Below are positions 21,714 to 52,945 of a stretch of DNA of 64,000 nucleotides, piece by piece; positions within the stretch are counted from its first letter, which is position 1, and each line of letters opens with the position of its first letter. The notes under the pieces were generated by a model. It was not told the origin of the DNA. It did not search any database and saw only the letters and a program-made list of their open reading frames with translations. Both the position numbers and the translations under genes were made by a program. Source of the stretch: an uncultured Gemmatimonadales bacterium (lineage in GTDB: Bacteria; Gemmatimonadota; Gemmatimonadetes; Gemmatimonadales; GWC2-71-9). The stretch covers positions 403,929 to 467,928 of the forward strand of contig CAVSEC010000007.1 of the NCBI GenBank assembly GCA_963726955.1. Reading direction: 5' to 3'.

Positions 21714-23450
21714 ATGGGAAACTTCCAGAATTGGGGCGTGAAGACCAAACTCTTCCTCCTCGTCGGCCTCGCCGTGGCCGGCCTCATCGCCAGCGCCGCC
21801 ATCGGGTATATCGCGATCGAAAAGGTGAAGGTGCACGGGCCCGTCTACGAATCGATGATCACCCAGAAGGATCTCCTGGGCGATGCCCTCCCTCCGCCGC
21901 TCTCTCTACTGGAACCCTACATGCTGGCGTTGAAGATTCCCGCGGAGGATCACCCGGGGGATCGCGCCGCGTACATCGGTCGCGCCGACTCCATACGGGC
22001 GATCTACCTGGCTCGAAGGTCGTACTGGATGGAGCAGCTCCCCGAGGGACCGGAGCGCAAAGTGCTGCTGGAGCAGGTGCTGCCGCCGGCCGATCGATTC
22101 TACTCGATCTGGGAAAGCGCCTACCTGCCGGCCGTACACCGGGGCGACTTTGCCGCCGCTCGAAAGGTGACGGAGACCGACCTGGACAGTCTGTACAAGG
22201 CGAGCGCGACCGCCGTGGTCGGGATCCTGGCCCTCGGCAATGCGGAGGCAGCGCGTCTCGATGCCGTCGCGGAGGGAATTGATGAGGCCCCCAAGCGTGA
22301 ACTGATCGGCCTGGCGGTGGGGGTCGCCATTGTCCTGTCGCTCGTCGGCTGGATGGTGATGCGACAGATCCTGAGCAATCTGGTGAGTACGGTCGGGGCC
22401 CTGCAGACCGCCGCGACCGGCGATCTGACTGTCCGGACCGGCGTCACCACCACGGACGAATTCGGCCAGATCGCGGGCGCACTGGACGCCTTTCTCGGGA
22501 GCATGCGGGAGAGCATCGCCTCGATTGCGAACAACGCGACCGCACTCGCCTCAACTGCGGAAGAGCTCACCAACGTGAGCCAGACGATGAGCGCCGGCGC
22601 CGAAGAGACCGCGGTGCAGTCGAACGTCGTGGCGCGAGCCACCGACGGGGTCAATCGCAACGTGCAGACGGTCGCCGCGGCCTCGGAGGAGATGAGCGCC
22701 AGCATCCAGGAGATTTCCAAGAATGCCTCCGAGGCAGCGCGGGTCGCCTCGGAAGCGGTGTCGGCGGCGGACCAGGCCAACGAGACGATCTCCCGGCTGG
22801 GCAAGTCCAGTGATGAGATCGGCGCGGTGATCAAGACGATCACCTCGATCGCCGAACAGACCAATCTGCTCGCCCTCAACGCCACGATCGAGGCGGCGCG
22901 GGCCGGGGAAGCGGGCAAGGGCTTCGCAGTGGTGGCGAACGAAGTGAAGGAGCTCGCCAAGGAGACGGCGAGGGCGACCGAGGACATCAGTCGCAAGATT
23001 CAGACGATTCAGGCCGACACCCATTCCGCGGTACAGGCGATTCAGGGGATTGGCCGGGTGGTGGGGCTCATCAGCGCGGCCCAGAATACGATCGCCAGTG
23101 CCGTCGAGGAGCAGACCGCCACGACCAACGAGATCAACCGCAACCTGGCCGAGGCCGCGACGGGCGCCTCGGAGATCGTGCAGAACGTCGCGGGCGTCGC
23201 CACCGCCGCCAACGAGACTACGCGAGGGGCCAACGATACCCAGCAGGCGGCAGCGGAACTGGCCCGCATGGCGGCGGCGCTCCAGGACCTGGTGCGGCAG
23301 TTCCGCTACGAAGAGCGCGATCGACGGACCCAGCCGAGCCCGGCTCGGCGGGTCGCCGTTCAGATGCCCGCCGCACCGGACGGTGTCGAGCTGAACGAGT
23401 ATGGCCGGGCGTTCGCCGCCAGCCGGCAGCCGTCCGTCGAAGCCGACTGA
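21714..23450 (+). CDS. methyl-accepting chemotaxis protein, 2 TM with a periplasmic helical sensor, HAMP and MA domains
   Basis: TM1 is [24 protein letters not shown] and TM2 is [20 protein letters not shown]. The HAMP region contains [22 protein letters not shown]. The signalling hairpin core is [38 protein letters not shown]. Confidence 0.9.
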
Positions 23451-23522
23451 GTCAGGCGTCCGACTCGGCCGGGCACGAGGATGCAGGGGAGGGGAGTCAC
23501 TTTCAGCCAGGATGGGCAAGGT

Positions 23523-25871
23523 ATGCGCTGGACAATTCAACGTATGCTGATCGGCCTTGGCGCCATCGGCGCCGTGGTGGCCCTCGTGGTGGGCGAGGTG
23601 GGGTACTACTCGACCGTGGAGGCCGCCAACAGCGAGGCGCTCCTCAATCGCGAGGCGCGAGCCCTCCGCCGAGAAATGCTCGCGGACATGATGCACGACG
23701 CCTTGCGGGCGGATGTACAACGCGCGCTCCTCGCTGCCCGGATTGCGCCGCAGGATCGTGACTCGGTCCTCGCGGATGTGACGGAGCATGTTCAGACCTT
23801 TCGCGCTGCCCTGGCGGACAGCGACCTGCAGGCGGGTGGCCCTCCCATTCACCAGGTGCTCTCCGAAATACAGCCGGCGGCTGACGACTACCTCGCGACT
23901 GCGCAGGCCCTCGCGGCCCTGGCCTTCCGGGATCGGGTCCTGGCAGAGCAGCGATTCGGCCAGTTCCAGACCGCGTTCGAGCGGCTGGAGGTCGGCATGG
24001 AGAATCTCGGTGATGCGGTGCTGCAGGAGGGAGAAGGGGTCCAGGCATGGGCGGCAGAGCAGGGCATTCGCTCGCGAAGGTTGATCCGGATGTTCGCGAT
24101 CCTGGGGCTCGGCATTTCGATATTCATCGGCTGGGCGGTTGCCCGTCGGGTGACGCGTGAAGTCAGGGAGATTCAGCGGGTGACCACACTGGTCGGCGCC
24201 GGTGACTTCCGGGAGGAGGCACGGGTACTCAGCCGGAACGAACTGGGAGAGACGGCGCGCGCCCTCAACCAGGCGATCCACGGCATGCGCACCGCCCTCG
24301 CGGCCGAGCGGGTCGACTGGCAGGACGTCGGGCGGCAGCGCGCCGAGGTGATTCGGATCCGGCAGCTGGTCGAGAACGCGCCGGTCAATATCATGTATGC
24401 CGATCGGGATCTGACACTGCAGTACATGAATCCGGCGGCGAGCAGCACCTTCCGCAAGCTGGAGCGGTACCTCCCGGTGAAGGTGGAAGAGATGTTGGGC
24501 AAGTCAATCGACATCTTCCATCGCAATCCGGCGCACCAGCGGGACCTGCTGGGCGTCGCCGCGAATCTGCCGCATCGCGCGCAGATCCAGGTCGGTCCGG
24601 AGACGCTCGATTTCATGGCCTGCGCCATCAAGGATGACCACGGCGAACACATCGGCACGATGGTGACCTGGGAGTTGATCACCTCGAGACTGGCGTCGGA
24701 GCAGCAGGTCAAGGATGCGCAGGCGGCGCAGCTGCGGACGGCCGAGGAGCGCCGGAAGACCGAGCAGGCGGAGTCGGAGCGCCGCCAGCATGAAGGGTCG
24801 GAGCGCGAGGCGGAGCAGCACAGCCGGGCGGAAGTGGAGCGAGCCAGGGCGTCGGAGCTGCGCGCCAAGGTGGACGAAATCCTCGCGGTGGTGGATGCTG
24901 CGGGCCAGGGCGATCTCACCCGCGAGATCTCGGTGCGGGGGGAGGATGCCATCGGCCGGTTGGGCGAAGGACTGACCACCTTCTTCCGCAATCTGCGCGG
25001 CAGCGTCGCGAACATCGCCCGGACGGCGGAGACGGTCGCCACGACCTCGACGCAGGTGAACGCGGTTGGGCAGCGGCTGGGCGGCGCGGCTGGCGAGACG
25101 GCTGCGCAGGCGAGCGTGGTCTCGACGGCGGCGGAGGAGGTCTCGCGCAACGTGCAGACGGTGGCGTCGGGGACGGAAGAGATGAGCGCTTCGATCCGCG
25201 AGATCGCGAAGAATGCGTCGGAGGCCGCCCGGGTGGCGCTGCAGGCGGTGAAGGTGGCGGAGCGAACCAACGGCACGGTAGGGAAGCTGGGCGAGTCGAG
25301 CGCCGAGATCGGAAAGGTCATCAAGGTGATCACCTCGATCGCGCAGCAGACCAATCTGCTGGCTCTCAACGCCACCATCGAGGCGGCCCGCGCCGGCGAG
25401 GCGGGCAAGGGCTTCGCCGTCGTGGCCAACGAGGTCAAGGAACTCGCCAAGGAGACCGCACGTGCCACCGAGGAGATCGGGCGGAAGATCGAGGCGATTC
25501 AGGCCGACACCGGCGACGCGGTGAGCGCCATTCGGGAGATCAGCGATATCATCGGCCAGATCAGTGGCATCCAGACCACGATCGCGGGCGCGGTCGAGGA
25601 ACAGACGGCCACGACCAACGAGATGAGCCGGAACGTTTCGGAGGCCGCGCGCGGGGCGCAGGAGATCGCGCAGAACATCCAGGGTGTTGCGACCACCGCC
25701 CAGAGCACGACGGAGGGTGCGACTCAGAGCCAGACCGCGGCCGGCGAGCTCGCCCGTGCCGCCCGTGAGCTGCAGGCCCTCGTGGCCCAGTTCCGCTATG
25801 AGGAGGCGGGCGCCTCGGTGCGGGGTCGGGCCTCACGTCCGGTGGCGCGCCTCGCCGGGGCGAAAGCCTAG
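23523..25871 (+). CDS. methyl-accepting chemotaxis protein, 2 TM-HAMP-PAS-coiled coil-HAMP-MA
   Basis: TM segments are [21 protein letters not shown] and [18 protein letters not shown]. The PAS module reads [30 protein letters not shown]...[11 protein letters not shown]. An E/R-rich coil and [22 protein letters not shown] follow. The core is [38 protein letters not shown]. Confidence 0.9.
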
Positions 25872-26141: not shown

Positions 26142-28421
26142 ATGAGCGACATGGACGAGATCGTCAAGGAGTTCCTGGTCGAGAGTACCGAGGGCCTTGA
26201 TACGCTGGATCGCAACCTCGTTGCGCTCGAGAAGAAACCGGGCGACAAGGAGCTGATGGGCGGGATCTTCCGCGCCATCCACACGATCAAGGGCACCAGC
26301 GGGTTCCTCGGCTTCGGGCGGCTGGAATCAGTGGCCCATGTCGGCGAGAGTCTGCTCTCCGATCTGCGGGACGGCAAGAAGACGCTCACCCCGGAGATCA
26401 CCAGTGCGCTGCTGCAGCTGGTGGACGCCGTGCGGTCGATCCTCGGTGCCATCGAAAGCACCGGGGTGGACGGCCAGGACGACTTCGTTCCGCTCGTCGA
26501 GCTGCTGACGCGGCTGCAGAAGGGGGAGGCCGTCGCGGGAAAAGCTGAGGGGGCCGGGACGCCCGCAAAGGCGACACAGGCGGCGAAGCCGGAGCCGGCC
26601 GAGGTGGCAGCCGCCACCCCCGCGCCCGACGTCGCGTCCATCCCGGCCCCCGCAGCCGTGCCGGCCCCGGTCTCTGCCGTCCCCGTCGGCGAGGGCGCGG
26701 AAGCCAAGGGTCCGCAGGCGACCGACAGCAATATCCGGGTGGACGTGAGTCTGCTCGACAAGCTCATGAATCTGGTCGGCGAGCTGGTGCTGGCTCGGAA
26801 CCAGATCCTGCAGTACACCGCGACGCAGGAGGACAGCAGCTTCGTCGCGACCACGCAGCGCCTCAATCTCATCACCACCGAGCTGCAGGAAGGGGTCATG
26901 AAGACCCGCATGCAGCCGATCGGCAATATCTGGACCAAATTCCCGCGCGTGGTCCGCGACCTCGCGCTGGCCTGCAAGAAGCAGGTCCGCATCGAGATGG
27001 AAGGCAAGGAGACCGAACTCGACAAGACCATCATCGAAGCCATCAAGGATCCGCTCACCCACATCGTGCGCAACTCGGTGGACCACGGGATCGAGCTTCC
27101 CGCGGACCGGGTGGCGCGGGGCAAGCCGGCGGAGGGGTGCCTGCTGTTGCGCGCCTACCACGAGGGCGGCCAGGTGAACATCGAGATCTCCGATGACGGC
27201 GGCGGGGTCAACGTCGATCGGGTGAAGGCCAAGGCGATACAGAAAGGGTTGATCACCGCGGAGCAGGCGGCACGGATGGCCGACCGCGAGGTCGTCACCA
27301 TGATCTTCGCTCCAGGCTTCTCGACGGCCGAGCAGGTCAGCAACGTCTCCGGCCGCGGTGTGGGCATGGATGTCGTGAAGACCAACATCGAGAAGATTGG
27401 CGGCACGGTCGACATTCACAGTGTGGCGGGCCAGGGGACCACCCTCAAGATCAAGATTCCGCTCACGCTTGCCATCATCCCCGCGCTGATCGTGACCAGG
27501 GGTGGAGATCGCTTCGCGATCCCGCAGGTGTCACTGCTGGAACTGGTGCGGCTGGAGGGCGATGAGACCGGCAACTGCATCGAGATGGTCCACGGCTCGC
27601 CGGTCTATCGGCTGCGCGGCCGGCTGCTGCCGCTGGTGCACCTCTCGGATGCGCTGGGGCTCACCACCGGCGCCGCGATGGCGCCGAGGACACCGGATGA
27701 TGTCGTGAACATCGTCATCCTGCAGGCCGACGAACACAGCTTCGGGCTGGTGGTGGACGAGATCAACGACACCGAGGAGATCGTGGTCAAGCCGCTGGGG
27801 AAGCAGCTCAAGGGGATCAGCGCCTTTGCGGGCGCGACCATCATGGGCGACGGGCGGGTGGCCCTCATCCTGGACGTCCTCGGCATCGCGCAGAAATCGG
27901 CGGTGGTGTCCGAGGCGCGGGTCCGCGGTCAGGCGGAGGTCGTGGATACGCTGCGCGCTGCCGGCGACGAGAAGCAGATGCTGCTGCTGTTCCGCCTCGG
28001 CGAGGACCGCCGGATGGCCATCCCGCTCTCGATGGTGGCGCGCCTCGAGGAATTTCCCCGGAGCGCCGTGGAACGGGCCGGTGCCCACCAGGTGGTCCAG
28101 TACCGGGATCGCCTGCTGCCGCTGCTGCGCCTCACGGAGCTCCTTGGTGAGGCAGGCGGCACAGGGGAGGAGCGGGATCCCATTCCGGTCGTCGTCTACG
28201 CCCACGAGGGGCGTGATGTCGGGCTCGTGGTGGAGAACATCGTGGACATTGTGGAGGAGCACCTCACGGTGCACCGCCGGCAGCGGCCGGGCGCGGTGTA
28301 CGGCACGGCGGTGATTCAGCAAAAGGTCACCGACCTGCTGGACGTGCGGGCCCTCATCGAGGGCGCCGACGTCCTGCTGTTCGCCGGCGCCGATGTCGAA
28401 ACCGTCGGCGCGGGAGCCTGA
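26142..28421 (+). CDS. cheA: chemotaxis histidine kinase CheA (P1, no P2, P3, P4, two P5/CheW-like domains)
   Basis: P1 is FRAIHTIKGTSGFLG. An Ala/Pro-rich linker replaces P2. P3 is IRVDVSLLDKLMNLVGELVLARNQ. P4 carries DPLTHIVRNSVDHGIE, ISDDGGGV and SGRGVGMDVVK. Two CheW-like segments follow (RFAIPQVSLLELVRL...IMGDGRVALILDV and MLLLFRLGEDRRMAIPLSMVARLEEF...VIQQKVTDLLDV). Confidence 0.95.
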   Translation: MSDMDEIVKEFLVESTEGLDTLDRNLVALEKKPGDKELMGGIFRAIHTIKGTSGFLGFGRLESVAHVGESLLSDLRDGKKTLTPEITSALLQLVDAVRSILGAIESTGVDGQDDFVPLVELLTRLQKGEAVAGKAEGAGTPAKATQAAKPEPAEVAAATPAPDVASIPAPAAVPAPVSAVPVGEGAEAKGPQATDSNIRVDVSLLDKLMNLVGELVLARNQILQYTATQEDSSFVATTQRLNLITTELQEGVMKTRMQPIGNIWTKFPRVVRDLALACKKQVRIEMEGKETELDKTIIEAIKDPLTHIVRNSVDHGIELPADRVARGKPAEGCLLLRAYHEGGQVNIEISDDGGGVNVDRVKAKAIQKGLITAEQAARMADREVVTMIFAPGFSTAEQVSNVSGRGVGMDVVKTNIEKIGGTVDIHSVAGQGTTLKIKIPLTLAIIPALIVTRGGDRFAIPQVSLLELVRLEGDETGNCIEMVHGSPVYRLRGRLLPLVHLSDALGLTTGAAMAPRTPDDVVNIVILQADEHSFGLVVDEINDTEEIVVKPLGKQLKGISAFAGATIMGDGRVALILDVLGIAQKSAVVSEARVRGQAEVVDTLRAAGDEKQMLLLFRLGEDRRMAIPLSMVARLEEFPRSAVERAGAHQVVQYRDRLLPLLRLTELLGEAGGTGEERDPIPVVVYAHEGRDVGLVVENIVDIVEEHLTVHRRQRPGAVYGTAVIQQKVTDLLDVRALIEGADVLLFAGADVETVGAGA

Positions 28422-28426
28422 GCCCC

Positions 28427-28876
28427 ATGGCCATCGAACGTCAGTTCTGCACCTTCTTTCTCGACTCGCTCTTTCTTGGCATCGAAGTGCAGCAGGTCCA
28501 GGAAGTGATACGCCGCCAGACCATGACGCGGGTACCCCTCGCGCCGCGGGCGGTGCGCGGCCTCATCAATCTGCGCGGCCAGATCGTCACCGCCGTCGAC
28601 CTGCGGGAGCGACTGGGGCTGCCACCGCTTGCAGCCGATCGGGAACCGATGAACGTCGTGGTCCGCACGGAAGAGGGGGCGGTGAGCCTGCTCGTCGACG
28701 AGATCGGTGATGTGCTGGAGACCGAGGAGCACCAGTATGAACCGCTGCCCGAGACCCTGCCGGCCCAGGCCCGCGCGCTGATGCGGGGCGTCTACAAGCT
28801 CCCGGGCCGACTGCTGCTGATTCTCGATACCGCCAAGGTGCTCGCCACCGAGCCCGTTGGATCCGGTGCGCGCTGA
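28427..28876 (+). CDS. cheW: chemotaxis coupling protein CheW
   Basis: QFCTFFLDSLFLGIEVQQVQEVIR...PRAVRGLINLRGQIVTAVDLRERLGL...LLVDEIGDVLE...RLLLILDTAKV is present. Confidence 0.9.
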   Translation: MAIERQFCTFFLDSLFLGIEVQQVQEVIRRQTMTRVPLAPRAVRGLINLRGQIVTAVDLRERLGLPPLAADREPMNVVVRTEEGAVSLLVDEIGDVLETEEHQYEPLPETLPAQARALMRGVYKLPGRLLLILDTAKVLATEPVGSGAR

Positions 28877-29073: not shown

Positions 29074-30843
29074 GTGCCGATGACCGCCCCGACCGCTAAC
29101 GCCGCGCGCGAGATGCCCCCGGCGGCAGCCGTCAGCGATCCGCTCTCGGCGCCACGCCTTCTGGAGAGTCTCGGGCGACTCACGGCCGTCCTGTTCCTCG
29201 CCGATCGGCACCAGCGGATCGTCGCTGTCAGCGCCGCCGCCGAGGAGGCGGTGCACCGGCTCGGCTTCGCCGCCGGTACCCTGCAGGGCATGGACCTCGC
29301 CGCCGTGCACGGCAATCCGCCCGGTTTCCGGGAGTCGGTCACCGGTGCGACAACTCTCCCGTTCGAGCACAAGATCAGGACCGAGCAAGCGATCTACAAG
29401 TGCATCATCGCGCCCGTGCCGGACGCGAGCGGTTCCCTGTCCGGGTATGCGGTCGCGTGGGAAGACCAGACCAAGCGGCAACGGATTGAAGTGGAGCTCG
29501 GGCGGGTACTGTCGATGATCGAGAGCTGCCCCACGAACATGATCTGCAGCGACCCCGATCTCACGATGCAGTACGTGAATCCCGCGGGCCGCCGATCACT
29601 GGAGGCACTCGCGCGGGTCCTGCCGGTGCGGCCTGATGAGCTCACCGGAAAGCCGATGACGATCTTCTTCGAGCGATCGAAGGAGCTCGAGCGCCGTCTG
29701 CTCGATCCGGCGAATCTGCCCTACCGGACGCGGGTCGTGTTCGGGGCCGAGACGATCGATTTCCTGGTCTCCGCCACCGTGGATCACCAGCAGCGGTACA
29801 TCGGGCCGATGCTGACCTGGGATGTTGTCACCCCGCAGCTGGCCGCCGAGCGGACCATCGCCGAGGCACGCGATCGGGAGCAGCGCGAGGCGGGAGAGCT
29901 TCGGGTGAAGGTCGACAGTATCCTGGCGTCGGTGCACGCCGCTACCACTGGGGATCTCACGCGCGAGGTGACGGTCCGCGGCCAGGACGCGATCGGCCAG
30001 CTGGGGACCCAACTGGCCACGTTCTTCACCGACCTGCGTGGCAGCATCGGGGAGATTGCCGGCCATGCCGACACCCTCGCCGCGGCGACGCAGGAGCTCT
30101 CCGCCGTCAACAAGGCGGTGAGCGGCGGGGCGGCGGATACCAGTGCCCAGGCCCAGGTGGTTGCGACCGCCTCCGGGGAGGTGACCCGCAACGTGCAGAC
30201 AGTGGCGGCCGGGGCCGAGGAGATGGGCGCCAGTATCCGCGAAATCGCCAAGAATGCCGCCGATGCGGCCAAGGTCGCGAGGGAGGCTGTGTCCCTCGCC
30301 AATCATACCAACGGCATGATGACCAAACTGGGCGAGTCGAGCCAGGAGATTGGCAAGGTGCTCAAGCTCATCACGTCGGTGGCACAGCAGACCAACCTGC
30401 TTGCGCTGAACGCGACGATCGAGGCGGCTCGCGCGGGCGAGGCGGGGAAGGGATTCGCCGTCGTGGCCAAGGAGGTCAAGGACCTCGCCAAGGAGACGGC
30501 CCGCGCCACCGAGGAAATCGGCCAGCGGATCGACGCCATCCAGAATGACACCACGGGTGCCGTCGGGGCCATCCGCGAGATCGGCTCGATCATCACCCGG
30601 ATCAACGATATCCAGACGGTCATTGCGGGGGCGGTGGAGGAGCAGACCGCCACCACCAACGAGATGGGCCGGAATATCAGCGACGCCGCGCGCGGCTCCA
30701 GCGAAATCAGCGATACGATCGCCGGGGTGGCGCAGGCGGCGCAATCCACCAGCGACAGCACTGGCAACAGCCAGAAGGCCACTCAGGAGCTTGCCACGAT
30801 GGCTGCGGATCTCCGCCGCCTCGTGGGACGCTTCAGGCTGTAG
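29074..30843 (+). CDS. soluble methyl-accepting chemotaxis protein, PAS-PAS-HAMP-like-MA
   Basis: There is no TM segment. PAS 1 reads [19 protein letters not shown]...[13 protein letters not shown] 2 reads [30 protein letters not shown]...[33 protein letters not shown] follows. The core is [38 protein letters not shown]. Confidence 0.9.
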
Positions 30844-43425: not shown

Positions 43426-44269
43426 AGCGTCCGATCTGCTCAAGGGGGTGGTCAGTATCTCGACCCTGCCGGGGGTCTACCTCCGGCTCGCCTCGGTGGT
43501 CAGCGACCCGCGCAGCTCGGCCGCCGATGTGGGCCGGGTGATCGCGGACGATCCGGGCCTCACGGCGCGCCTGCTCAAGCTGGTAAACAGCGCGATGTAC
43601 GGATTTCCCTCGAAGATCGAGACGGTCAGTCACGCGATCAGCATCGTCGGGACGGCCCAGCTCCAGGATCTCGCGCTGGCGACCTCGGTCATCCGGCTGT
43701 TTGCGAGTGTGCCGGAGAATCTGGTCACCATGGAATCCTTCTGGCGCCATAGCGTGGCCTGCGGTGTCACGGCGCGGACCCTGGCGACCCGCCGGCGTGA
43801 GTCCAACGTCGAGCGCTACTTCGTGGCCGGCCTTCTGCATGACATCGGGCGACCGGTCATGTACATGCAGATCCCCGAGGAGGCCGGCGTCGCGGTGACG
43901 CGCAGTCGGGAGTCCGGCCGGTCGCTCTTCGAGATCGAGTATGAACTCCTCGGGTTTGATCACTCGCACGTCGGTGCCGCGCTGCTCGAACAATGGAAGC
44001 TGCCGCCCAGTCTGCGCGAGCCGGTCGCCCATCATCATCACCCGGAGCGCTCGCAGCGGTTTCCGGTCGAGGCCGCGCTCGTCCACGTCGCCGACCTGAT
44101 CGCCAATGCGCTGCAATTCGGTACCAGCGGCGAGCCCGGCGTGCCGCTCCTCGCGCCCGGCGCCTGGGAGGCGATCGGCCTGGCGCCCAGCGTGCTCGGG
44201 GATGTCATGGAGGAGGCCGAGACCCACTACGAGGCGGCGGTGCAGGTCATCGCGCTGGATCGCACATGA
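43418..44269 (+). CDS. HDOD domain protein (second copy)
   Basis: LPGVYLRLASVVSDPRSSAADVGRVIADDPGLTARLLKLVNSAMYG, VAGLLHDIGRPVM and LLGFDHSHVGAALLEQWKLP are present. Confidence 0.8.
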   Translation: MRRASDLLKGVVSISTLPGVYLRLASVVSDPRSSAADVGRVIADDPGLTARLLKLVNSAMYGFPSKIETVSHAISIVGTAQLQDLALATSVIRLFASVPENLVTMESFWRHSVACGVTARTLATRRRESNVERYFVAGLLHDIGRPVMYMQIPEEAGVAVTRSRESGRSLFEIEYELLGFDHSHVGAALLEQWKLPPSLREPVAHHHHPERSQRFPVEAALVHVADLIANALQFGTSGEPGVPLLAPGAWEAIGLAPSVLGDVMEEAETHYEAAVQVIALDRT

Positions 44270-46783
44270 CCACCCCACCCGTTCCCGGCGCCGATCCGCA
44301 GTGGGTGCTCGATGCGCTCGATCTGGTCGCCTCGCTGGGCGCCTTTCGAGCCGGTGAGCAGCACGACGTCACGCCGGCCGTCGTGCTGGGCGCGGCAAAG
44401 CCCGTGCTCCGCCGACTGCTCGAGTTCGACCAGGCCGCCTTCCTCCTGCTGGAGCCCGACGGTCTCGGCTTCCAGGTGGTCGACGCCGAGCCGCGCGAGG
44501 CAGGCCCGGCGCTGGAGCGCGAGGTCGACGAACAGGTCCGCGCTGGCGTGTTCGCCTGGGCCGCGCATCGGAACTCGGCCGTCCAGGTGCCCTGCGCGAC
44601 CCAGCCGAAGCGCACCGTCCTCCTGCATGCCCTCGCCACCCGCTCGCAGGTGATCGGGATGTTCGTCGGCATCGCGGGGGAATCGCTGGAGGACACGCCG
44701 GAGGCCAATCAGAAGCTGCTGTCGATCCTGCTGAGCAACGTGGCCGGCGCGCTCGAGAGTGCCCAGCTCTATCACGCGCTCTCGGCCTACAGCGAGGGTC
44801 TGGAGCGTCTGGTGGAGGAGCGGACCCGTGAACTGGTACAATCGAACGAGAGGGCCCAGGCCGCCAACCGCGCCAAGAGCGAATTCCTCGCCAACATGAG
44901 TCACGAGCTCCGCACCCCGATGAATGGCGGTCATGGGCATGGCGAGCCTCCTGCTGGATACCGAACTCAGCGACGAACAGCGGGACTTCGCGCAGACCAT
45001 CAACTTGTCCGCGGAAAACCTCCTGACCCTGGTCAACGACATCCTGGACCTGTCCAAGATCGAGGCCGGCAAGCTGACGATCGACCTGGTGGCGATGAAT
45101 CTGCGGGAAGTCGTCGAGGAGGTGGCCACGCTGCTGGGCGTCCGCGCGGCGGAGAAGGGGCTGTCCTTCGCGGCCCGTGTAGCGCCCGGCATTCCGGAGC
45201 GGGTCCTCGGCGACCCTGGCCGCTTTCGCCAGGTGCTCACCAATCTGGCCGGCAACGCCGTGAAGTTCACGGAACGGGGGCAGGTCCTCCTGGATCTCGC
45301 GCCGGTACAGCGCGACGGCAATCGGCTCACCGTGCATCTGCGCATCGTGGATAGCGGCATCGGCATCCCGGCGGAGAAGCTGGGACAGATTTTCGACAAG
45401 TTCACCCAGGCCGATGCCTCCACCACCCGACGCTATGGCGGGACCGGATTGGGGCTCGCGATCTGCCGTGAACTCGTCGAACTGATGGGCGGGCAGATCG
45501 GTGTGGAGAGCACGACGGGGGCGGGGAGTACCTTCTGGTGCACGCTGCCTTTCGAAGTGGTGCTGCCGGAGCGTGCCGCGCCGCCCCGACTCGACGGGCA
45601 GCACATCCTGCTCTCCGCCGCCGATCCCACGGAGCGGGGTCTGGTGGCGGAGCTGCTCACCGCTGAAGGAGCGAGCGTCATTGCCGCCGCGAGCGTGGGC
45701 GAGGCGCTGCGACACCTGCAGGAAGCCATCGCCGGCCGGCGGATGGTGCATTCGCTCGTGGTGGACGCGGCAGATGTCGGTTCGCTCCTGCCGTTCCTCA
45801 ACCGCACTCCCGCCCTCCGGTCCACCCGCCTGGTGCTGCTCGCTGCCGCCGACCATCGGACCGACCCACGCCTCGACGGCCTCGGCCCCCGGGCCACCTC
45901 GGTCTTCCGCCCCTATCGCCAGCGCGATCTGCTCGAGGCGGTCGGTCCCGGGGGGCACCGGCCGATCCACCCTGCGGAGAGCGCCGAGCCGGAGGGCCCG
46001 GTCCTTGGTCCTGCCCGGATCCTGCTGGTCGAGGACGGTCTCGTGAATCAGAAGGTGGCGCTGAACATGCTGCGGCGATTCGGGTGTCGCACCGACGTCG
46101 CGGGGGATGGGGTGGAGGCGCTCGAACGACTGGCCGAGGCGGCCTATGATCTGGTGTTGCTGGATTGCCAGATGCCGCGGATGGATGGATTCACCACGGT
46201 CCGCGCGCTGCGGGAGCGGGAGTCCGCGGTGGGCCAGCACCTCCCGGTGATCGCGATGACGGCGCATGCCATGCAGGGCGACCGGGAGCGCTGTCTCGCC
46301 GCCGGAATGGACGACTACCTCACCAAGCCGGTCGACCGTGAGGCACTCGCCGGCATCCTGGCCCGCTGGATTCCAGGCCGATACCTCCTCACACGGCGGG
46401 TGAGTGAGCCTGTCGTCCTCCCGGCAACGGAGCCGAGCCTGGACTACGACGTCGTCGCGGGGCTTCAGGAGCTCGAGGCCTCGGGCGAGTCCGGACTCTT
46501 CGCGGAGGTCGTCTCGCTATTTGCCGGCCAGGGACAGCTCATGATGGAGAAGTTGCACGCTGCGGTCGCGGCGGGTGATGAGGCGGGTTGGCGGCAGGCG
46601 CTGCATGGGTTCGTCGGTACCGCCGGCTCGGTCGGGGCGCTCCGACTCTCCGAGCGCTGTCGCGAGCTGGAAGAGGGAGTGGGCGGGTTGCCCGCTGACG
46701 CCGCGGCTACTCTGGCCGAGCTCGAGGAGGCCTTCGCGGAAGCGCGGGCCGAACTCGGTCGAGTCGGTGAGCTCCGTGCGTAA
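44266..46783 (+). pseudogene. tripartite hybrid histidine kinase 1 (GAF-like, HisKA, HATPase, degenerate REC, REC, HPt), one frameshift
   Basis: The ATG overlaps the HDOD stop. The H-box is [18 protein letters not shown]. An extra G at 44929/44930 precedes VMGMASLLLDTELSDEQ.... GTGLGLAICRELVELMGG follows. The REC domain reads ILLVEDGLVNQKV...LVLLDCQMPRMDGF...[26 protein letters not shown]. The HPt motif is ALHGFVGTAGSVGA. Confidence 0.85.
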
Positions 46784-49460
46784 GGGATTGCTGTTCGTCG
46801 CCATCGCCATCCTCGGCGGAGAGCTCGGTACGATGCTGCTCCTGCCCCTGGCCCTGCCGCATGCGTCGGTCTGGCAGCAGGCGCTGGTGGATGCGAGCAT
46901 CCAGTGCCTCATCGCGGTACTCTCCCTCTACTGCTTTGTCGCCGTGCCGCTCCGGCGCGGCGCAGCGCGCGCGGTCCGCCAGAGCGCTGATGCGCTGGAG
47001 GAGGTAGTCAACGCGGTGGGCGAGGTGCTGTTCCGGACCGATCTCGACGGCCGCTGGACGTTCCTCAACCTCGCCTGGACGCGGATCACCGGATGGGAGG
47101 TGGGGGAAACACTCGGGACCGCAGCGCTCGACGCCGTGCACGAGGACGATCGTGAGGCGCTCACGCAGCTGGTCGCCGGAGTCCTCCGGGACACGTCGGA
47201 CGAGTGCCGCCTCGAGGTGCGCTTCCGGACCAGAGACGGCAGCCTGCGCTGGATGGAGTACCAGGGCCGCGCCGTGCGCGACGGGCGCGGTGCGGTGACC
47301 GGCGTCTCCGGCACGCTGCATGACGTGACGGAGCGGCACGAGGCCGGGCAGGCGCTGGCCGCCCAGACCCGCGTGCTCGAGGCACAGGCCCGCGAACTCG
47401 CGCAGGCGCGGGATGCCGCGCTCGATCTCTCACGGCTCAAGTCTGATTTCCTGGCCGGCATGAGCCACGAAATCCGCACCCCGATGAACGGCGTGCTCGG
47501 CATGTCCGGACTGCTGATCGATACCGCGCTGGACGCGGAACAACGCGGCTACGCCCAGGCGATCCAAGGCTCCGCCGACGCACTCCTCACCATCATCAAT
47601 GACATCCTGGATTTCTCCAGGATCGAGGCCGGGAAGCTCAGCATCGAGCCGCTCTCGTTCGATCTCCGCGTCGCGGTCGAGGAAGTCGCCGATCTGCTCA
47701 CGCAGCGGGCGGGCCAGCAGGGCGTGGAGCTCATCGTCCGCACCGCCCCGGACTTGCCGCGTTATGTGATCGGCGATGCGGGCCGGATCCGTCAGATCCT
47801 CACCAATCTTGCGGGCAACGCCCTCAAGTTCACCTCCCGCGGACATGTCCTGATCAATGTGGAAGTCGAACCGGGGCCGGGTCCCGTTCCCTGGATCCGT
47901 TTCTCCGTGGAGGATACCGGTGTCGGCATCGAGGCGGACCGACTGGATGCGATCTTCGACAAGTTCACCCAGGCCGAGGCCAGTACGACCCGCCGGTTCG
48001 GCGGGACCGGGTTGGGGCTCGCGATCTGTCGTCAGCTGACGGAACTGATGGGTGGGCGCATCGGAGTCGACAGCGTGCCGGGGGAGGGCTCGACGTTCTG
48101 GGCCGTGCTTCCGCTGCCGGCTGCCACGGACCCTCGCCCGATGACCACGATCGACTGCGACTTCACCAAGGTCCGCGCCCTCATCGTGGAGCCGGACGCG
48201 ACCGGCCGGCACGTCCTCACGGAGCAGCTCGATGGCCGTGGTTTGCGGGTTGCCGCCGTCGCGTCCGGCGAAGCGGCGCTGGCCGAGCTGGGTAACGCCG
48301 AGTGGGCGGACGATTCGTATGCCATCATCCTGCTCGCCGGCGACCTGCCTGACATGGAGGGGGAGACTCTCGGCCGGCTCATCAAGGCGGATGCCCGGCT
48401 GCATACCGCGGTGCTGCTCTACCTGGCGACGCACGGACGGCCGGGAGATGGGCGACGGATTCACGAGGCGGGCTTCGCCGCCTACCTGCTCAAACCCTGT
48501 CGGCAGGATGACCTCGGCGCCGCGATGGCGCTCGCGTGGCAGAACCGGGATGCCGTGGTGCCGCTTCCGCTGATCACCCGACACTCGCTGGCGGAGGCCC
48601 GCGCGGCCGACCAGCCGGCGCCGGTGCCGGCCCAGCGGGCGGGGGAGTCTCCCTGGCGGATTCTGCTGGTCGAGGACAATCCGGTCAACCAGAAGCTGGC
48701 CGCGCGGCTGCTGGAGAAGCTGGGCTGCCGGGTCGATGTCGCGGGCAACGGACGGGAGTGTGTCGAGATGCTCACCTCCCTCCCCTACGATCTGGTCTTC
48801 ATGGACTGCCAGATGCCGGAGATGGACGGCTACGAGGCCACGCGCCAGGTGCGCGCCTCCACGAGCCCGGTGGCCCATCTGCCGATCATCGCCATGACCG
48901 CCAATGCCATGGCGGGCGACCGGGAGAAGTGCCTGGCCGCGGGCATGGACGACTACATCTCCAAGCCCATCCGGAGCGATGATCTCGCCGAGATGCTGCC
49001 GCGCTGGCTTGGCGCCGGCGCGCCCCGTTCCGCTACCCCGACGGACGCGCGGCGCCCCGGCGAGGTCGGCAGCATCGAACTGAGCGCACTCGATCAGCTC
49101 CGCGCATACGACCTGCGGGGCGGCTCCCGCCTGGTGGAGGAGCTCTGCCGGCTCTTTCTCAGCGACACGCCCACGCGCATCGCCACACTCGCGGAGGCGG
49201 TGCAGCGCAGCGACGGCGACCTGGTCCACCTCATCGCCCACACGGTGAAGGGTGCCGCGTGGCTGGTCGGCGCGCGCCGGCTGGGTGCCCTCGCCGAAGG
49301 AATCGAGCAGCAGGCGGGCCAAGGCCACCTCGACCGGATCCCGGACCAGTCCGCCCGGCTGCGGCAGGAGTTCGAACGCATCCGTCCGTTCTATGAGCGC
49401 GCCCTCGCCGCCGCAGTGCGCGGCGAGCCCCTGCCCGCCGAACCGGAGCCAGCGGTATGA
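46776..49460 (+). CDS. tripartite hybrid histidine kinase 2 (2 TM, PAS, HisKA, HATPase, degenerate REC, REC, HPt)
   Basis: The GTG at 46776 overlaps the upstream stop. The PAS domain reads VLFRTDLDGRWTFLNLAWTRITGW...GVSGTLHDVTERH. The H-box is [18 protein letters not shown], and GTGLGLAICRQLTELMGG follows. The REC domain reads ILLVEDNPVNQKL...[14 protein letters not shown]...AMTANAMAGDREKCLAAGMDDYISKP. The HPt motif is IAHTVKGAAWLVGA. Confidence 0.85.
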   Translation: MRKGLLFVAIAILGGELGTMLLLPLALPHASVWQQALVDASIQCLIAVLSLYCFVAVPLRRGAARAVRQSADALEEVVNAVGEVLFRTDLDGRWTFLNLAWTRITGWEVGETLGTAALDAVHEDDREALTQLVAGVLRDTSDECRLEVRFRTRDGSLRWMEYQGRAVRDGRGAVTGVSGTLHDVTERHEAGQALAAQTRVLEAQARELAQARDAALDLSRLKSDFLAGMSHEIRTPMNGVLGMSGLLIDTALDAEQRGYAQAIQGSADALLTIINDILDFSRIEAGKLSIEPLSFDLRVAVEEVADLLTQRAGQQGVELIVRTAPDLPRYVIGDAGRIRQILTNLAGNALKFTSRGHVLINVEVEPGPGPVPWIRFSVEDTGVGIEADRLDAIFDKFTQAEASTTRRFGGTGLGLAICRQLTELMGGRIGVDSVPGEGSTFWAVLPLPAATDPRPMTTIDCDFTKVRALIVEPDATGRHVLTEQLDGRGLRVAAVASGEAALAELGNAEWADDSYAIILLAGDLPDMEGETLGRLIKADARLHTAVLLYLATHGRPGDGRRIHEAGFAAYLLKPCRQDDLGAAMALAWQNRDAVVPLPLITRHSLAEARAADQPAPVPAQRAGESPWRILLVEDNPVNQKLAARLLEKLGCRVDVAGNGRECVEMLTSLPYDLVFMDCQMPEMDGYEATRQVRASTSPVAHLPIIAMTANAMAGDREKCLAAGMDDYISKPIRSDDLAEMLPRWLGAGAPRSATPTDARRPGEVGSIELSALDQLRAYDLRGGSRLVEELCRLFLSDTPTRIATLAEAVQRSDGDLVHLIAHTVKGAAWLVGARRLGALAEGIEQQAGQGHLDRIPDQSARLRQEFERIRPFYERALAAAVRGEPLPAEPEPAV

Positions 49461-52400
49461 CAGCGCTCCTCGAGGCCAAGGCGAGGCCTCTCTGGAGAGT
49501 GCGGACGCAAGTGGCTCTGCTCGGCGCCGCGACGGCGCTGGTCCTTCTCGTCGGCGTCATCGGCACCGCGCTCATCCTGTCCGCCGCCCGGCAACGCTTC
49601 GATCGCGAGGATCAGACGACCTCGATCGGACGGGCACGCGTCGCGATCGCCCAGAGCCTCGCGGCGGACCGCAGCCGGATCACCGATTTCGCCTGGTGGG
49701 ACGAGCTGTACACCTGGATCGGTCGCCCGCACGATGGCCGGACAGATCTCTTCCTGCGCGACAACTTCACCACGACCCTCCCGGGAAAATACGGCGATCA
49801 GCTGATCGGATTCTGGAAGGCAGACCGGTCGCCGGTGTTCGAGTGGCATGCCCCGACTGCCGCCTCGTTCGCGCAGGGTGTCCCGGTGACCGACCTGTTC
49901 AACCTGCTCGACCGGGAGCAGGTCGCCTCCGGATTCGTCACGTTCGGCGGGCGGATCTATCGGCTGACGGGTGCGCTCATCAAACCCAGCGATCTCACGA
50001 GCACGGCCGCGCCACGCGGCTATCTCGTCACGGGTCAGCAGGTGGACGACAGCGCCATGTCCCGTCTCGCCGTGACCCTGCAGCAGCAGGTCAGCGTCCG
50101 CCCGGTGATCGCCAGGAGCGATACGATCGTGCGCCTGACCTTTGCCGGTGGTGACAGCGTCGCCACGACGTTCGGCGTCACCGACCTCTTCGGGGCGAAC
50201 AAGGTTCGGATCGAACTCCGAGCCTCCCGCGCCTTTCTCCGAGGCGTCGAAGGCTGGATGGCGCGCCTCATGGTCGGGGCCGCGGTGCTGGTGCTCCTCT
50301 TCCTGGGCCTGCTCATCCTGGTGGTCACCCGCTACCTGCTCCGCCCCTTTGCCCGCATCGGAGTGGAGTTCGCCGCGATGCATGCCGAAGGGCGCTTCGG
50401 CCGCCTCGGCACCGCCGCGACGGCGCGCGAGTGGGCCCTCTTCCTCGACAGCTTCAACCAGCTCGCCGACGGCCGCGAACGCGCCGAGCTGGAGCTGGCT
50501 GCCGCGCGCGATGAGGCGGTCGCCTCCACCCGGGCGAAGAGCGATTTCCTGGCCAATATGAGCCATGAGATCCGGACCCCGATGAACGCCATTCTCGGCC
50601 TCTCCGACCTGCTGCGGCGTACGCCGCTGACTGGGGAGCAGCGCCGGTACGTGGAGGCGGTACACGGCTCGGGGGAGGCGCTGCTCACCCTGATCAACGA
50701 CATTCTCGATCTCTCGAAGGTCGAGGCCGGCAAGCTCACGATCGAGACGGTGCCGTTCGACCTCCACCGCGCGGTCTCGGAGACGGTCGCGATCTTCACG
50801 CACCGGGCCGCCGAGCGAGGCGTGCGAATAGAGGAATGCATCGCGCCAGGAGTACCGGCGCGGGTGCTCGGCGATCCCGGCCGGGTGCGCCAGGTGCTGA
50901 CCAACCTGATGGGGAACGCACTCAAGTTCACCAAGGCGGGACAGGTCCTCGTTCGCGTGTTGGCGGACGGCTCGGCCGAAGAGAACGTGGTGCGCTTCGA
51001 GGTCGAGGACACCGGGATCGGCATTCCGGCCGACAAGCTTGGGCGGATCTTCGAGAAGTTCGCCCAGGCCGACTCGAGCACGACCCGGAAATTCGGGGGA
51101 ACCGGGCTGGGGTTGTCGATCAGTCGGCAGCTGGTGGAGCTGATGGGAGGCGAGGTCACCGTGCAGAGCGAGGTGGGGCGCGGGAGCACCTTCGCATTCA
51201 CCGTCCCCCTGCCGCCCTGCGTCGGGGTACCGGCCCAGCTCCCGCGCGACCTCCCGCTGACCGGGCTCCGGCTGCTGCAGCTGTCCGTGGATGGAGTCGC
51301 CGATCCGGCGGTGCGGGCGGCGCTCGTCACCGAGGGGCTCCGGGTGGTGGAGGCGGCGGTGTTCCCGTCTTCCGACGAGCTGCTGCTCGCGGCGTCCACC
51401 GAAGAGACACCATTTCATTTCGTCCTGATCGAAGGCGAAGAGATGTCGCCTGCGGTGCAGCAGGCGATAGCGGCCTGTCGCCAGGGCCTGTGGCCGGCGG
51501 TGGCGGTGGTGGTACTCCTCCGGCGCGGCTTCCGCGGCCTGGCCAGTCAGGCGCGCATCGCCGGCGCCCATGCCTGCCTGGTCGATCAGGGACCCCCAAA
51601 CGACCTCCGTGAGGCGCTCGCGGTGGCGCGCCAGGTGGTGCAGGGCGGCCTGTCGTGGCCGCTCATCACCCGACCCTGGCTGCTGGAGGCGCGTGCCGGC
51701 GAGGAAGACAGTGCGACCCCGCTCGCTGGGGAACGGGTCACAGCACCGGGAACTCGGGTGCTCGTGACGGACGATAACGAGCTCAACCGCCTCATCGCCA
51801 CCGAATACCTCCGGCGCCTCGGCGCCGACGTCCTCACGGCGGCAAGTGGCGAAGAGGCGATCGCCCTGCTGGCCGATGGCGGCATCCAGCTGGTGTTCAT
51901 GGATTGCCAGATGCCGGAGCTCGACGGGTACGAAACGACGGCGCGCATTCGCGGCATCCCCGGGGATCCCGGCCAGGTCCCGATCGTGGCGATGACCGCC
52001 AACGCGATGCAGGGGGACCGGGAGCGGTGCCTCGCGGCCGGGATGAACGATTATGTGAGCAAGCCGATCCGGGAAGCGGATGTGAGTCGCGTGCTCCGGC
52101 GCTGGTGCGGCACCGCACCCACGCCCAGGAACCCGCCGATATCGCATGAGCGGCCGGCAGCGGCGCAGGAGGCCGCACCGATCAGCGCCGGCTCGCTCGA
52201 GAGCCTCAGCTCCTCGGGGCCCGGTGGGGCGGGCCTCGCCGCCCGGCTCACGGCCCTCTACCTCCGGGAGACGCCGGCGCAGATCCGGTTGCTCCGTCAG
52301 GCGATCAGTGCCGGCGACCTTGCCGTAGCGGGCAGGATGGCCCACACACTCCGAGGGGCGTCAGGCGTGATGGGGGCACTCGGAGTCGTGGAGTTGTGCC

Positions 52401-52945
52401 AGCGCATCGAACAGGCCGTCGCGCGGGAGGCGAGCGAGGATGCGCGTGACGCGATCGGCGTGCTTGAGCGCGAGGTGGAGCGCGCCCTCCGGGCGCTCGG
52501 CGCAGCTGCCGTCGAGGTGCCGGCGCTGGACCCCGGCAAACGCGATGAATTCCGGACGATGGAAGAGGAGAGCCCGGGGTTACTGACGACGGTCTTCCAG
52601 CTCTTCCTGAGTGATGCTCCGGGACGGATCACGTCGATCGAGACCGCCCTTGCGATCGAGGATGTCCCGGCGCTCGGTCACGCGGCGCATACCCTGCGCG
52701 GGGCCGCGCTCCAGCTCGGTGCGGTCGCGCTCGGACAGACGGTGGCAGGGATGGAGGCCGACGCGCAACGAGGTGACCTGCCATCGGTGCGAGCGCGCTT
52801 CCCCGACATGATCAAGGAGTGGGAGCGCGTGCGCGAGGCACTGTTGTCGGAAATCGAACGGGCGGGATCTCAGGCGCCGGGCGTCGCCTGCGCGCCCGCA
52901 GCGCCCGCAGCGCCCGCAGCGCCCGCAGCGCCCGTGGGGAACTGA
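49457..52945 (+). CDS. hybrid histidine kinase 3 (periplasmic CHASE4-like sensor, HAMP-like, HisKA, HATPase, degenerate REC, REC, two HPt)
   Basis: TM segments flank a roughly 230-aa periplasmic region ([12 protein letters not shown]...). The H-box is [18 protein letters not shown], and [18 protein letters not shown] follows. The REC domain reads [13 protein letters not shown]...[14 protein letters not shown]...[26 protein letters not shown]. The HPt motifs are [14 protein letters not shown] and [14 protein letters not shown]. The 3' end runs into the 9-bp repeat at a suspected junction. The CHASE4 call is from memory. Confidence 0.8.
52892..52936. repeat. 9-bp tandem repeat, about 5 copies
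   Basis: GCGCCCGCA occurs 4 times (52892-52927), followed by GCGCCCGTG (52928-52936). It encodes [15 protein letters not shown] at the end of kinase 3 and (AAG)n on the opposite strand. Confidence 0.9.

Follow-up and report, generated by a model that had tools for sequence, protein, structure and literature searches.

Flagellar chemotaxis systems of class F5, in the MiST (Wuichet-Zhulin) scheme, are recognised by a CheA kinase that carries an additional CheW domain (PMC10782961, PMC10746217), by a gene order of the type AW...BR in combination with this extra domain, and by pairing with receptors of the 38H length class (PMC10746217, PMC6759762, PMC8429497). The DNA analysed here (the window, meaning the whole stretch of 64,000 nt) comes from an uncultured Gemmatimonadales bacterium and carries, at positions 21714-52945, a block of same-strand genes that the original prediction, made from the sequence alone, had called a chemosensory and phosphorelay supercluster. 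Its inventory of one CheA and two CheB/CheR pairs, set amid receivers, Hpt domains, non-CheA kinases and PilZ, HDOD and HD-GYP genes, was confirmed. The further remark that no described pathway of such composition was known was too strong, since the core shows the published hallmarks of class F5, and most of what looked like a supercluster can be recognised as a flagellar chemotaxis system of this class. We read the block as one F5-class flagellar chemotaxis system of the sigma-28 regulon, with extra adaptation copies and a fused relay module, and put the probability of this reading at about 0.7.

Domains were called from Pfam and NCBIfam scans and membrane segments from hydrophobicity and transmembrane (TM) prediction; labels such as L001 designate related loci. 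Each of the domain calls first made from the sequence was recovered by the Pfam scan (for a small ORF called DUF3391-like, see below). The block holds 23 genes in 26 open reading frames (ORFs), all on the plus strand, because cheB2, REC-Cys4-2 and HK1 are each broken by single-base indels. The 26 genes announced earlier are thus correct as a count of ORFs but not of genes, the three frameshift-split genes having gone unmentioned. Gap sizes were recomputed with ortholog-supported starts and came out exactly as predicted, at 72, 270, 197 and 179 nt; every remaining gap is at most 25 nt or an overlap. The chemotaxis genes proper, with the methyl-accepting chemotaxis proteins abbreviated as MCPs and receiver domains as REC, are the following.

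21714-23450, plus strand: MCP1, transmembrane, with HAMP and MCPsignal domains, 38H length class (Pfam, TM prediction, alignment to Tsr)
23523-25871, plus strand: MCP2, transmembrane, with HAMP, PAS and MCPsignal domains, 38H length class (Pfam, TM prediction, alignment to Tsr)
26142-28421, plus strand: cheA, with Hpt (P1), H-kinase_dim (P3), HATPase_c (P4) and two CheW-like domains (Pfam)
28427-28876, plus strand: cheW (Pfam)
29074-30843, plus strand: soluble PAS-type MCP, no TM segment, 38H length class (Pfam)
30852-32759, plus strand: soluble GAF-type MCP, no TM segment, 38H length class (Pfam)
32785-34497, plus strand: truncated-globin-PAS protein (Pfam Bac_globin, E 1.8e-8, and PAS_4; NCBIfam Aer2-like PAS region)
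34494-35576, plus strand: cheB1 (Pfam), the lineage-specific divergent copy in the neighbour-joining (NJ) tree
35593-36417, plus strand: cheR1 (Pfam), counterpart of the relatives' single CheR in the NJ tree
36427-36882, plus strand: cheX (Pfam CheX)
36892-37278, plus strand: pilZ, encoding a single-domain PilZ protein (Pfam PilZ, E 1.2e-9)
37458-39095, plus strand: MCP3, transmembrane, with a HAMP domain, 38H length class (Pfam, TM prediction, alignment)
39096-39713, plus strand: REC-Cys4-1, Pfam Response_reg followed by a divergent CxxC...CxxC extension
39694-40065, plus strand: cheY (Pfam), the only single-domain CheY of the locus
40069-41189, plus strand: cheB2 (Pfam on fragments), counterpart of the canonical CheB in the tree, frame broken four times
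41206-42066, plus strand: cheR2 (Pfam), the second methyltransferase

The class was assigned from published hallmarks. CheA has the extra CheW-like domain: the first such domain lies at residues 449-585 (Pfam CheW) and a second CheW-like region, read from the sequence by eye, at about 611-745. Its P1 domain carries the histidine motif HTIKG, and the linker of about 90 residues between P1 and P3 (residues 105-195, approximately) is Ala/Pro-rich and of low complexity, so that there is no P2 domain; a CheA with two P5 domains and without P2 is indeed what had been predicted. The genes run in the order A, W, MCPs, B1, R1, X, PilZ, MCP, REC, Y, B2, R2, which is the F5 order. The heptad class of the receptors was read from a MAFFT alignment of the five signalling domains to a single reference, Escherichia coli Tsr (36H), which replaced phmmer searches of an MCP against the PDB that gave alignments too fragmented for counting heptad gaps. 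All five MCPs have a net excess over Tsr of 7 residues in the N arm and 7 in the C arm, that is, one heptad more per arm, and the tip-to-FR distance is 131 in every one of them against 124 in Tsr, as expected of 38H receptors. The TM prediction makes three of them membrane-bound and two soluble. All have the same length, align with one another without gaps and share near-identical tip sequences; therefore all five should join one CheA/CheW array. The association with flagella is also found: the window has genes for flagellar export, rod and ring proteins, for a sigma factor of fliA type and for MotA and MotB, together with conserved sigma-28-like motifs. An alternative cellular function (ACF) system or a Wsp-like one would look different: here CheA is without a receiver, both a single-domain CheY and CheX are present, and the cluster encodes neither GGDEF nor EAL domains. 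The closest relatives of this CheA, at no more than 87% identity, are in metagenome-assembled genomes of Gemmatimonadales.

The presence of two adaptation pairs behind one CheA is best understood from the relatives. In Acidobacteriota, Planctomycetota, Verrucomicrobiota, Myxococcota, Nitrospirota and other phyla, relatives of CheA with 56-64% identity lie in clusters of the form CheA-CheW-MCP-CheY-CheB-CheR, often followed by CheX. The CheY and CheB of these clusters match best the CheY and CheB2 of the window, and their CheR matches best CheR1. Among the Gemmatimonadota, loci with a single set have the order CheR1-CheX-PilZ-CheY-CheB2 (L008, L092, L098, L170, L174, L199), other loci combine two CheR with one CheB (L197, L198, L201) or two CheB with one CheR (L171, L033), and the closer relatives of the window have two of each. 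In NJ trees, CheB2 and CheR1 group with the single-copy genes, CheB1 branches in a separate, divergent clade, and CheR2 comes close to the CheR from another, simpler cluster of Gemmatimonadales. The paralogues are 46% (CheB1/CheB2) and 53% (CheR1/CheR2) identical, and the catalytic residues of all four enzymes are intact after frame correction, including the catalytic Ser, His and Asp of CheB. Judged by tree position and gene order, CheY and CheB2 are the counterparts of the CheY-CheB pair of the single-set relatives and CheR1 and CheX those of their CheR-CheX pair; on the same comparisons, CheB1 and CheR2 are later, lineage-specific additions, made within the taxonomic order. The second pair is thereby explained as stepwise, lineage-specific duplication inside one pathway, and the series of relatives with 1+1, 2+1, 1+2 and 2+2 genes is a natural set in which to ask why a system with one CheA needs two adaptation pairs.

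The sole CheY of the locus lies in what looks like its second half; therefore, both halves belong to one pathway and cheB2/cheR2 is no orphan set. The original prediction had noted that this set has no CheA or CheW of its own. It is not a CheA-less second pathway: it lies beside the only cheY, and CheB2 is the counterpart of the CheB of single-set F5 clusters. A stronger form of the same idea would make CheB2, CheR2 and MCP3 a second, CheA-less pathway of ACF type in which the hybrid kinases replace CheA, after the example of CheS3 in the Che3 system of Rhodospirillum centenum. Che3 is an ACF system for cyst formation with the hybrid kinases CheA3 and CheS3, the CheA being fused to a receiver, and Che-like cascades with extra hybrid kinases do exist (PMC3868531). 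The situation of cheB2/cheR2 amid receivers, Hpt domains and non-CheA kinases, in a sigma-28-type unit of their own that starts with an MCP gene, would suit such a pathway. However, it is CheB2 that the tree places with the canonical CheB proteins of F5 clusters having a single set, CheB1 being the divergent copy; MCP3 has the same 38H length and nearly the same tip as the other four MCPs; relatives with one CheB and one CheR retain the same relay genes; and the hybrid kinases have no CheW-like domain. We consider a CheA-less pathway very improbable.

The che units also hold accessory genes. CheX belongs to a family of CheY-P phosphatases (Pfam). The PilZ protein, 128 amino acids with a single domain, carries both c-di-GMP motifs, RxxxR (RREFSR) and NxSxxG (NLSLKG), and its only matches in the PDB are four entries of PA4608/MapZ, aligned over the full length with weak E values of 0.016-0.023. 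In Pseudomonas aeruginosa, MapZ binds CheR1 in a c-di-GMP-dependent manner (PMC6370697), and in Azospirillum and Azorhizobium the F5 receptors carry fused PilZ domains (PMC6454048). The Nitrospirota clusters also have a PilZ gene after CheR-CheX. Encoded beside cheR1 and cheX, the MapZ-like PilZ protein probably couples c-di-GMP to receptor methylation. The globin-PAS protein is kept in most of the Gemmatimonadota loci. It has no MCP signalling domain, and its C-terminal 170 amino acids gave no significant Pfam or NCBIfam match and show no recognisable output domain.

Downstream of cheR2 the block continues as a phosphorelay, whose three large genes encode hybrid kinases (HK).

42063-42648, plus strand: REC-Cys4-2, Pfam receiver plus a LLPICxYCKRIRD...FSHGICPDC domain, one frame break at about 42455
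42656-43048, plus strand: stand-alone Hpt protein (Pfam Hpt), motif HALKGSA
43051-43425, plus strand: small ORF of 124 amino acids, member of a widespread family, without Pfam match
43418-44269, plus strand: HDOD-2, full-length Pfam HDOD, E 2.6e-66 (scored over 43352-44269)
44266-46783, plus strand: HK1, soluble GAF-HisKA-HATPase-REC-Hpt hybrid kinase (Pfam on two fragments), one frame break
46776-49460, plus strand: HK2, with two TM segments, PAS, HisKA, HATPase, two REC and Hpt domains (Pfam, TM prediction)
49457-52945, plus strand: HK3, with CHASE4, HisKA, HATPase, REC and two Hpt domains (Pfam)

From MCP3 to HK3, each gene boundary is an overlap or a gap of at most 16 nt. At 39093-39098 the stop codon of MCP3 directly abuts an in-frame TTG start of REC-Cys4-1 (gap 0), where L081 has a gap of 72 nt. 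A comparison of synteny, which the original prediction had proposed as a check, found the modules conserved together. Probes were HDOD-2, CheR2, CheA and the small ORF; 22 species-representative Gemmatimonadota genomes carry HDOD-2. The complete block order is also present on contig JBGATI010000001.1, and the order cheY-cheB(-cheR)-REC-Cys4(-Hpt)-small ORF-HDOD-GAF kinase was found in 21 of the 22 genomes, over a range of CheA identities from 62 to 87%. L172 (JANOFA010000296.1, 1-7779) has motB-motA, HDOD-1 (the second HDOD gene of the region, described below), REC-Cys4, small ORF, HDOD-2 and GAF kinase with no che gene between them, so that the relay module stays there with the stator genes even without che genes at that position.

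The association of HDOD genes with chemotaxis clusters is wider than the phylum. Among F5-like loci of other lineages in which CheB and CheR were visible (L010-L078, not counting the close relatives), 29 out of 53 have an HDOD gene inside the fetched 10-kb flank, and in the layouts of Acidobacteriota and Verrucomicrobiota this gene usually follows directly after CheB-CheR. In Ignavibacteriota/Bacteroidota, small ORF, HDOD and GAF kinase stand as a trio beside unrelated che clusters, and in Steroidobacteraceae the HDOD gene alone is found beside an unrelated che cluster. Geobacteraceae, Thiohalobacterales, other Gammaproteobacteria and Spirochaetaceae have the same trio with no che genes beside it. 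The suggestion that these might be ordinary systems lying side by side therefore stands in part: the trio is separable and che-free in other phyla, but it is fixed to the che operon in the Gemmatimonadota.

In a stricter version of this suggestion, two separate systems would be co-located and co-regulated without cross-talk by phosphate or protein contact, an F5 chemotaxis system that ends with cheR2 and an independent multi-kinase relay with another output, for instance gene expression or a behaviour related to c-di-GMP. The loci with a che-free trio (L182, L183, L204, L205, L206), the lack of che genes between trio and motBA in L172, the variation of HK2 and HK3 among relatives and an extra sigma-28-like motif directly before REC-Cys4-2 in L083 all speak for it, as does the fact that a tripartite kinase usually has receivers of its own to signal to. 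It must be set against the junction of cheY-cheB(-cheR) with REC-Cys4 in all but one of the Gemmatimonadota genomes, against the second REC-Cys4 gene, which lies between MCP3 and cheY and whose 3' end overlaps the start of cheY, and against the recurrence, in several phyla, of HDOD genes beside che clusters, both F5-like ones and others; nor does the window have a promoter- or terminator-like site between the two parts. Full separation seems unlikely to us, although it is the most serious competitor of the reading as one system with a fused relay.

The family of the small ORF counts 2276 cluster representatives, of which the majority are stand-alone proteins of 105-130 amino acids. About one eighth of its best matches are proteins of about 410-450 amino acids, and in the seven long members scanned with Pfam (P0162, P0166, P0171, P0185, P0213, P0225, P0280) the domain is N-terminal to HDOD in every case. 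This fusion to HDOD in other genomes argues that the small protein and HDOD work together. In the window the split between the two genes is genuine, because the frames differ identically in the window, L081 and L082. The small ORF had been called DUF3391-like, and a distant relation does exist, through the C-terminus of the HD-GYP regulator upstream (see below), to which it is 39% identical, and through one family member with a weak DUF3391 match; it has, however, no Pfam match even at E<=10 and does not reach the DUF3391 model (PF11871). Its AlphaFold model (pLDDT 75) gave no significant Foldseek match in the PDB.

The Cys4 domain, at 39450-39713 and 42445-42648, has the motif LLPICxYCKRIRD...W...FSHGICPxC, with C, C, H, C and C invariant. 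No significant match to either extension was found in Pfam or NCBIfam, and the AlphaFold model, although confident (pLDDT 79), gave no significant Foldseek match in the PDB. A search with the 64-amino-acid Cys4 peptide returned many homologues, all as short fragments annotated just as response regulators, and many of them follow receiver domains. HK1, HK2 and HK3 are paralogous (42-49% identical) and, with HK1 frame-corrected, all three are tripartite, with HisKA, HATPase_c, REC and Hpt in one polypeptide; the H-box SHE[LI]RTP, the Asp of the receiver motif DxxMP and the His of the Hpt motif HxxxG are present. We know of no established function for HDOD and none for the Cys4 domain. Our literature search found no description of HDOD linked to che clusters, of Gemmatimonadota chemotaxis loci or of the Cys4 motif. 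It is possible, and we propose it tentatively, that HDOD, the GAF kinase and the small DUF3391-like protein are an undescribed module, present in many phyla, recurrently recruited to che and motility loci and joined in the Gemmatimonadota by REC-Cys4 regulators, where it would be a branch under sigma-28 control wired into an F5 operon. If this were true, non-CheA kinases would act through REC-Cys4 to bring environmental inputs to the layer of adaptation or of the motor, or to read these inputs out, and the part of HDOD in motility control would be that of a partner, or else a regulator, of hybrid kinases.

The flagellar setting is given by a run of plus-strand genes at 1669-14984: fliR, flhB, flhA, flhF, a flhG-like gene for a MinD-type ATPase, flgF, flgG, flgA, flgH, flgI and flgK, with a fliA-type sigma factor gene (regions 2-4, within 6757-8112) in the position of fliA. 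They are followed on the minus strand by a kinase fragment, a REC-HD-GYP regulator gene, motB and motA, and then by a plus-strand HDOD gene. Because of this layout, the che block is the distal part of the flagellar region. The features between the two, with the putative promoter motifs, are these.

16105-17301, minus strand: REC-HD-GYP regulator (Pfam Response_reg and HD_5; NCBIfam NosR-family match), beside motB
17298-18176, minus strand: motB (Pfam MotB_plug/OmpA), divergent from the che cluster
18180-19046, minus strand: motA (Pfam MotA_N/MotA_ExbB), divergent from the che cluster
19070-19096, plus strand: sigma-28-like motif TGAA-N15-GCCGATAC, upstream of HDOD-1
19150-20013, plus strand: HDOD-1, full-length Pfam HDOD, E 1.5e-54, 39% identical to HDOD-2
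21608-21634, plus strand: sigma-28-like motif TCAA-N15-GCCGATAA, upstream of MCP1, with a counterpart in L001
26052-26079, plus strand: degenerate sigma-28-like motif TCAA-N15-GACCGATAC, upstream of cheA, read from the gap sequence
37362-37389, plus strand: sigma-28-like motif TCAA-N16-GCCGATAC, heading the third unit, MCP3 to HK3

The promoter consensus of sigma-28 (FliA) is well established. Its -10 element, GCCGATA[AC], occurs nine times in the window, always on the plus strand, where 2.6 occurrences are expected; copies also lie at 6123, 12297 and 14760 (plus strand), in the flagellar region. In 19 related Gemmatimonadota loci, 24 out of 24 matches to the motif are intergenic and lie 50-230 nt 5' of the same four positions. 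L001 has an identical motif before HDOD-1, and L004, L092, L098 and L172 also have one at this position; before cheA, the consensus form TCAA-N16-GCCGATAC is found in L001, L004, L005 and L007; and in 15 related loci a conserved copy lies ahead of whichever gene comes next to pilZ on its 3' side, be it MCP3, REC-Cys4-1 or cheY. The positional conservation is an observation; that the motifs are FliA promoters we infer from the consensus. The original prediction had described the gaps of 270 and 179 nt as containing promoters, which holds for sigma-28-like motifs but not for the sigma-70 consensus, of which a scan of 19.0-54.5 kb found no example in the gaps of the cluster. The same scan found no intrinsic terminator inside the cluster; between 19.0 and 38.9 kb there are no terminator-like hairpins at all on either strand, whereas shuffled sequences give 6.8 +/- 2.7. 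This depletion may reflect long operons or a different mode of termination in the phylum.

The adjacency of motBA is kept in L001-L005, L092, L098, L059 and L172. The REC-HD-GYP gene next to it, predicted earlier as an upstream HD-GYP-like regulator, is real according to Pfam, but its catalytic motifs are degenerate, with HEIGK (HE for HD), FENW (FEN for HHE) and GMP for GYP, and therefore the protein is probably not an active phosphodiesterase. It is its C-terminal stretch of about 50 amino acids that is 39% identical to the small ORF at 43051-43425. Rfam and tRNA scans gave no match; there is therefore no c-di-GMP riboswitch. Two ORFs that flank the cluster, at 20362-21408 and 53279-53878 (both on the plus strand), have no Pfam or NCBIfam match. 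The former, between HDOD-1 and MCP1, encodes an N-terminal hydrophobic segment and has no tblastn match in the related loci examined.

Three genes of the block are interrupted. In cheB2, reading in three frames locates four frame changes, at about 40370, at 40500-40560 (in the linker), and at about 40812 and 40910; REC-Cys4-2 has one, at about 42455, where GGG has become GGGG; and HK1 has one at about 44932, inside the H-box. Intact orthologues exist of cheB2 in L081 and L089 (by DNA alignment), of REC-Cys4-2 in L081 and L082 and of HK1 in L081, and the protein identity of the broken genes to those of L081 is not below that of their intact neighbours (71% for CheB2, 69% for CheB1). Elsewhere in the window flhA, flhB, flgK and the genes for a sulfite-reductase-like protein, adenylosuccinate synthetase and UvrD are also split (3408-5587, 2992-3411, 13094-14984, 54926-56423, 58633-59181 and 61466-63401, respectively); in flhA, positions 1-389 and 484-655 of FHIPEP are in different ORFs. 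The last 8 kb of the window have a G+C content of about 56%, against about 68% elsewhere. These window-wide splits and the low-G+C end point to uneven assembly quality rather than biology. Because the block's genes are intact in relatives, their identity is undiminished, unrelated genes are split and the G+C content is anomalous, the breaks are probably assembly indels. Programmed frameshifting in cheB2 was also considered, and rejected on account of four separate sites that are absent in relatives and of similar breaks in housekeeping genes.

The breaks could be taken as real frameshifts, in which case the locus would be decaying and the organism losing part of its motility signalling. The six of them inside 40.3-45.0 kb, next to 18 kb of intact upstream sequence, and the split appearance of flhA, flhB and flgK would agree with this. 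Decay of motility genes does not account for the splits in sulfite reductase, adenylosuccinate synthetase and UvrD, however, nor for breaks that in several cases are one-base expansions of G runs; and genes that show no excess amino-acid divergence from those of L081, and are whole in relatives, fit an indel-prone metagenomic assembly better. We regard decay as distinctly improbable.

A number of points weigh against the reading of the block as one F5 system with a fused relay. The class rests on published hallmarks rather than on a classification with the MiST hidden Markov models, and the heptad class of the MCPs on one alignment, to Tsr. The promoters are candidates by consensus match only, and the one before the cheA of the window is degenerate; the match of the PilZ protein to MapZ is weak (E of about 0.02). 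HK2 and HK3 are kept only in closer relatives; since they are variable and the trio occurs without che genes, the relay may serve motility generally or be independent of chemotaxis. Finally, if the breaks in cheB2, REC-Cys4-2 and HK1 were real, part of the proposed circuit would be dead in this organism.

The domain content, the hallmarks of the class, the pattern of orthology and the conservation of gene order and of promoter motifs are shown; on this basis, the single F5 system may work as follows. The block would be expressed as three or four transcription units of the late flagellar (sigma-28) regulon. The five 38H MCPs, three in the membrane and two soluble, would form a single sensory complex with CheW and CheA; CheA would phosphorylate the single CheY (39694-40065), which would act on the motor and from which CheX would strip the phosphate. 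Adaptation would be the task of two paralogous pairs, the ancestral CheB2 and CheR1 and the added CheB1 and CheR2, which may serve distinct subsets of receptors, for example membrane and soluble MCPs, by analogy with Rhodobacter. The PilZ protein would link c-di-GMP to CheR and methylation. The third unit runs without a gap from cheY-cheB2-cheR2 into the phosphorelay, where HK1 would respond to cues in the cytoplasm (GAF), HK2 to cues near the membrane (PAS) and HK3 to cues in the periplasm (CHASE4), and all three would pass phosphate, via their own Hpt domains or the stand-alone Hpt protein, to both REC-Cys4 regulators as the presumed output. The neighbouring GAF kinase, HK1, would be the joint target of HDOD and its small DUF3391-like partner. 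These phosphotransfer partners, like the action of HDOD, are putative.

The core class is already known, and both multi-paralogue adaptation and PilZ input have precedents. New are the series of CheB/CheR copy numbers within an operon with one CheA, the phylum-wide operon fusion to a relay of HDOD, hybrid kinases and REC-Cys4, and the recurrence of HDOD next to F5-like clusters. Less expected than the chemotaxis core is the operon link, conserved in the phylum, of cheY-cheB to REC-Cys4, to HDOD with its split-off N-terminal partner and to hybrid kinases, which makes the locus a concrete and testable context for the function of the HDOD and Cys4 domains. Its practical value is limited, since all that is known of the organism is a metagenome assembly whose quality is uneven.

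The described F5 systems, namely Che1 of Azospirillum brasilense, Che of Azorhizobium caulinodans, the Caulobacter system and Che1 of Rhodospirillum centenum, resemble the locus in the duplicated CheW-like domain of CheA, in the order cheA-cheW...cheY-cheB-cheR, in 38H receptors and in linkage to flagellar genes. They belong to Alphaproteobacteria, whereas the host here is a member of the Gemmatimonadota, and in the window CheA lacks a C-terminal receiver, the operons include five MCPs, two CheB and two CheR, and CheX, a stand-alone PilZ protein, the truncated-globin-PAS protein and a downstream phosphorelay in the same predicted transcript are added. A predicted c-di-GMP-binding PilZ module, probably acting at the adaptation or receptor layer, likens the locus to MapZ (PA4608) and CheR1 of P. 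aeruginosa and to the PilZ-containing F5 receptors Tlp1 and Cbp1; here, however, pilZ is inside the che operon beside cheR1 and cheX, and the P. aeruginosa system is of class F6. In Rhodobacter sphaeroides, several CheB and CheR serve membrane and cytoplasmic arrays. The likeness lies in having more than one CheB/CheR pair and both membrane-bound and soluble receptors, but Rhodobacter has separate CheA/CheW sets in separate operons, where the window has one CheA, one CheW and one locus. Che3 of R. centenum is likewise a che-type cluster with an additional non-CheA hybrid histidine kinase; the locus differs from it in being F5 and flagellar, and in its tripartite kinases (GAF, PAS, CHASE4) accompanied by HDOD, Hpt and REC-Cys4. 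The unorthodox kinases BarA, ArcB and TorS have the same HisKA-HATPase-REC-Hpt arrangement with conserved His, Asp and His. In the window, the proposed terminal receivers are REC-Cys4 proteins, with a zinc-ribbon-like domain, instead of DNA-binding regulators, and three paralogous kinases stand in tandem behind an HDOD gene.

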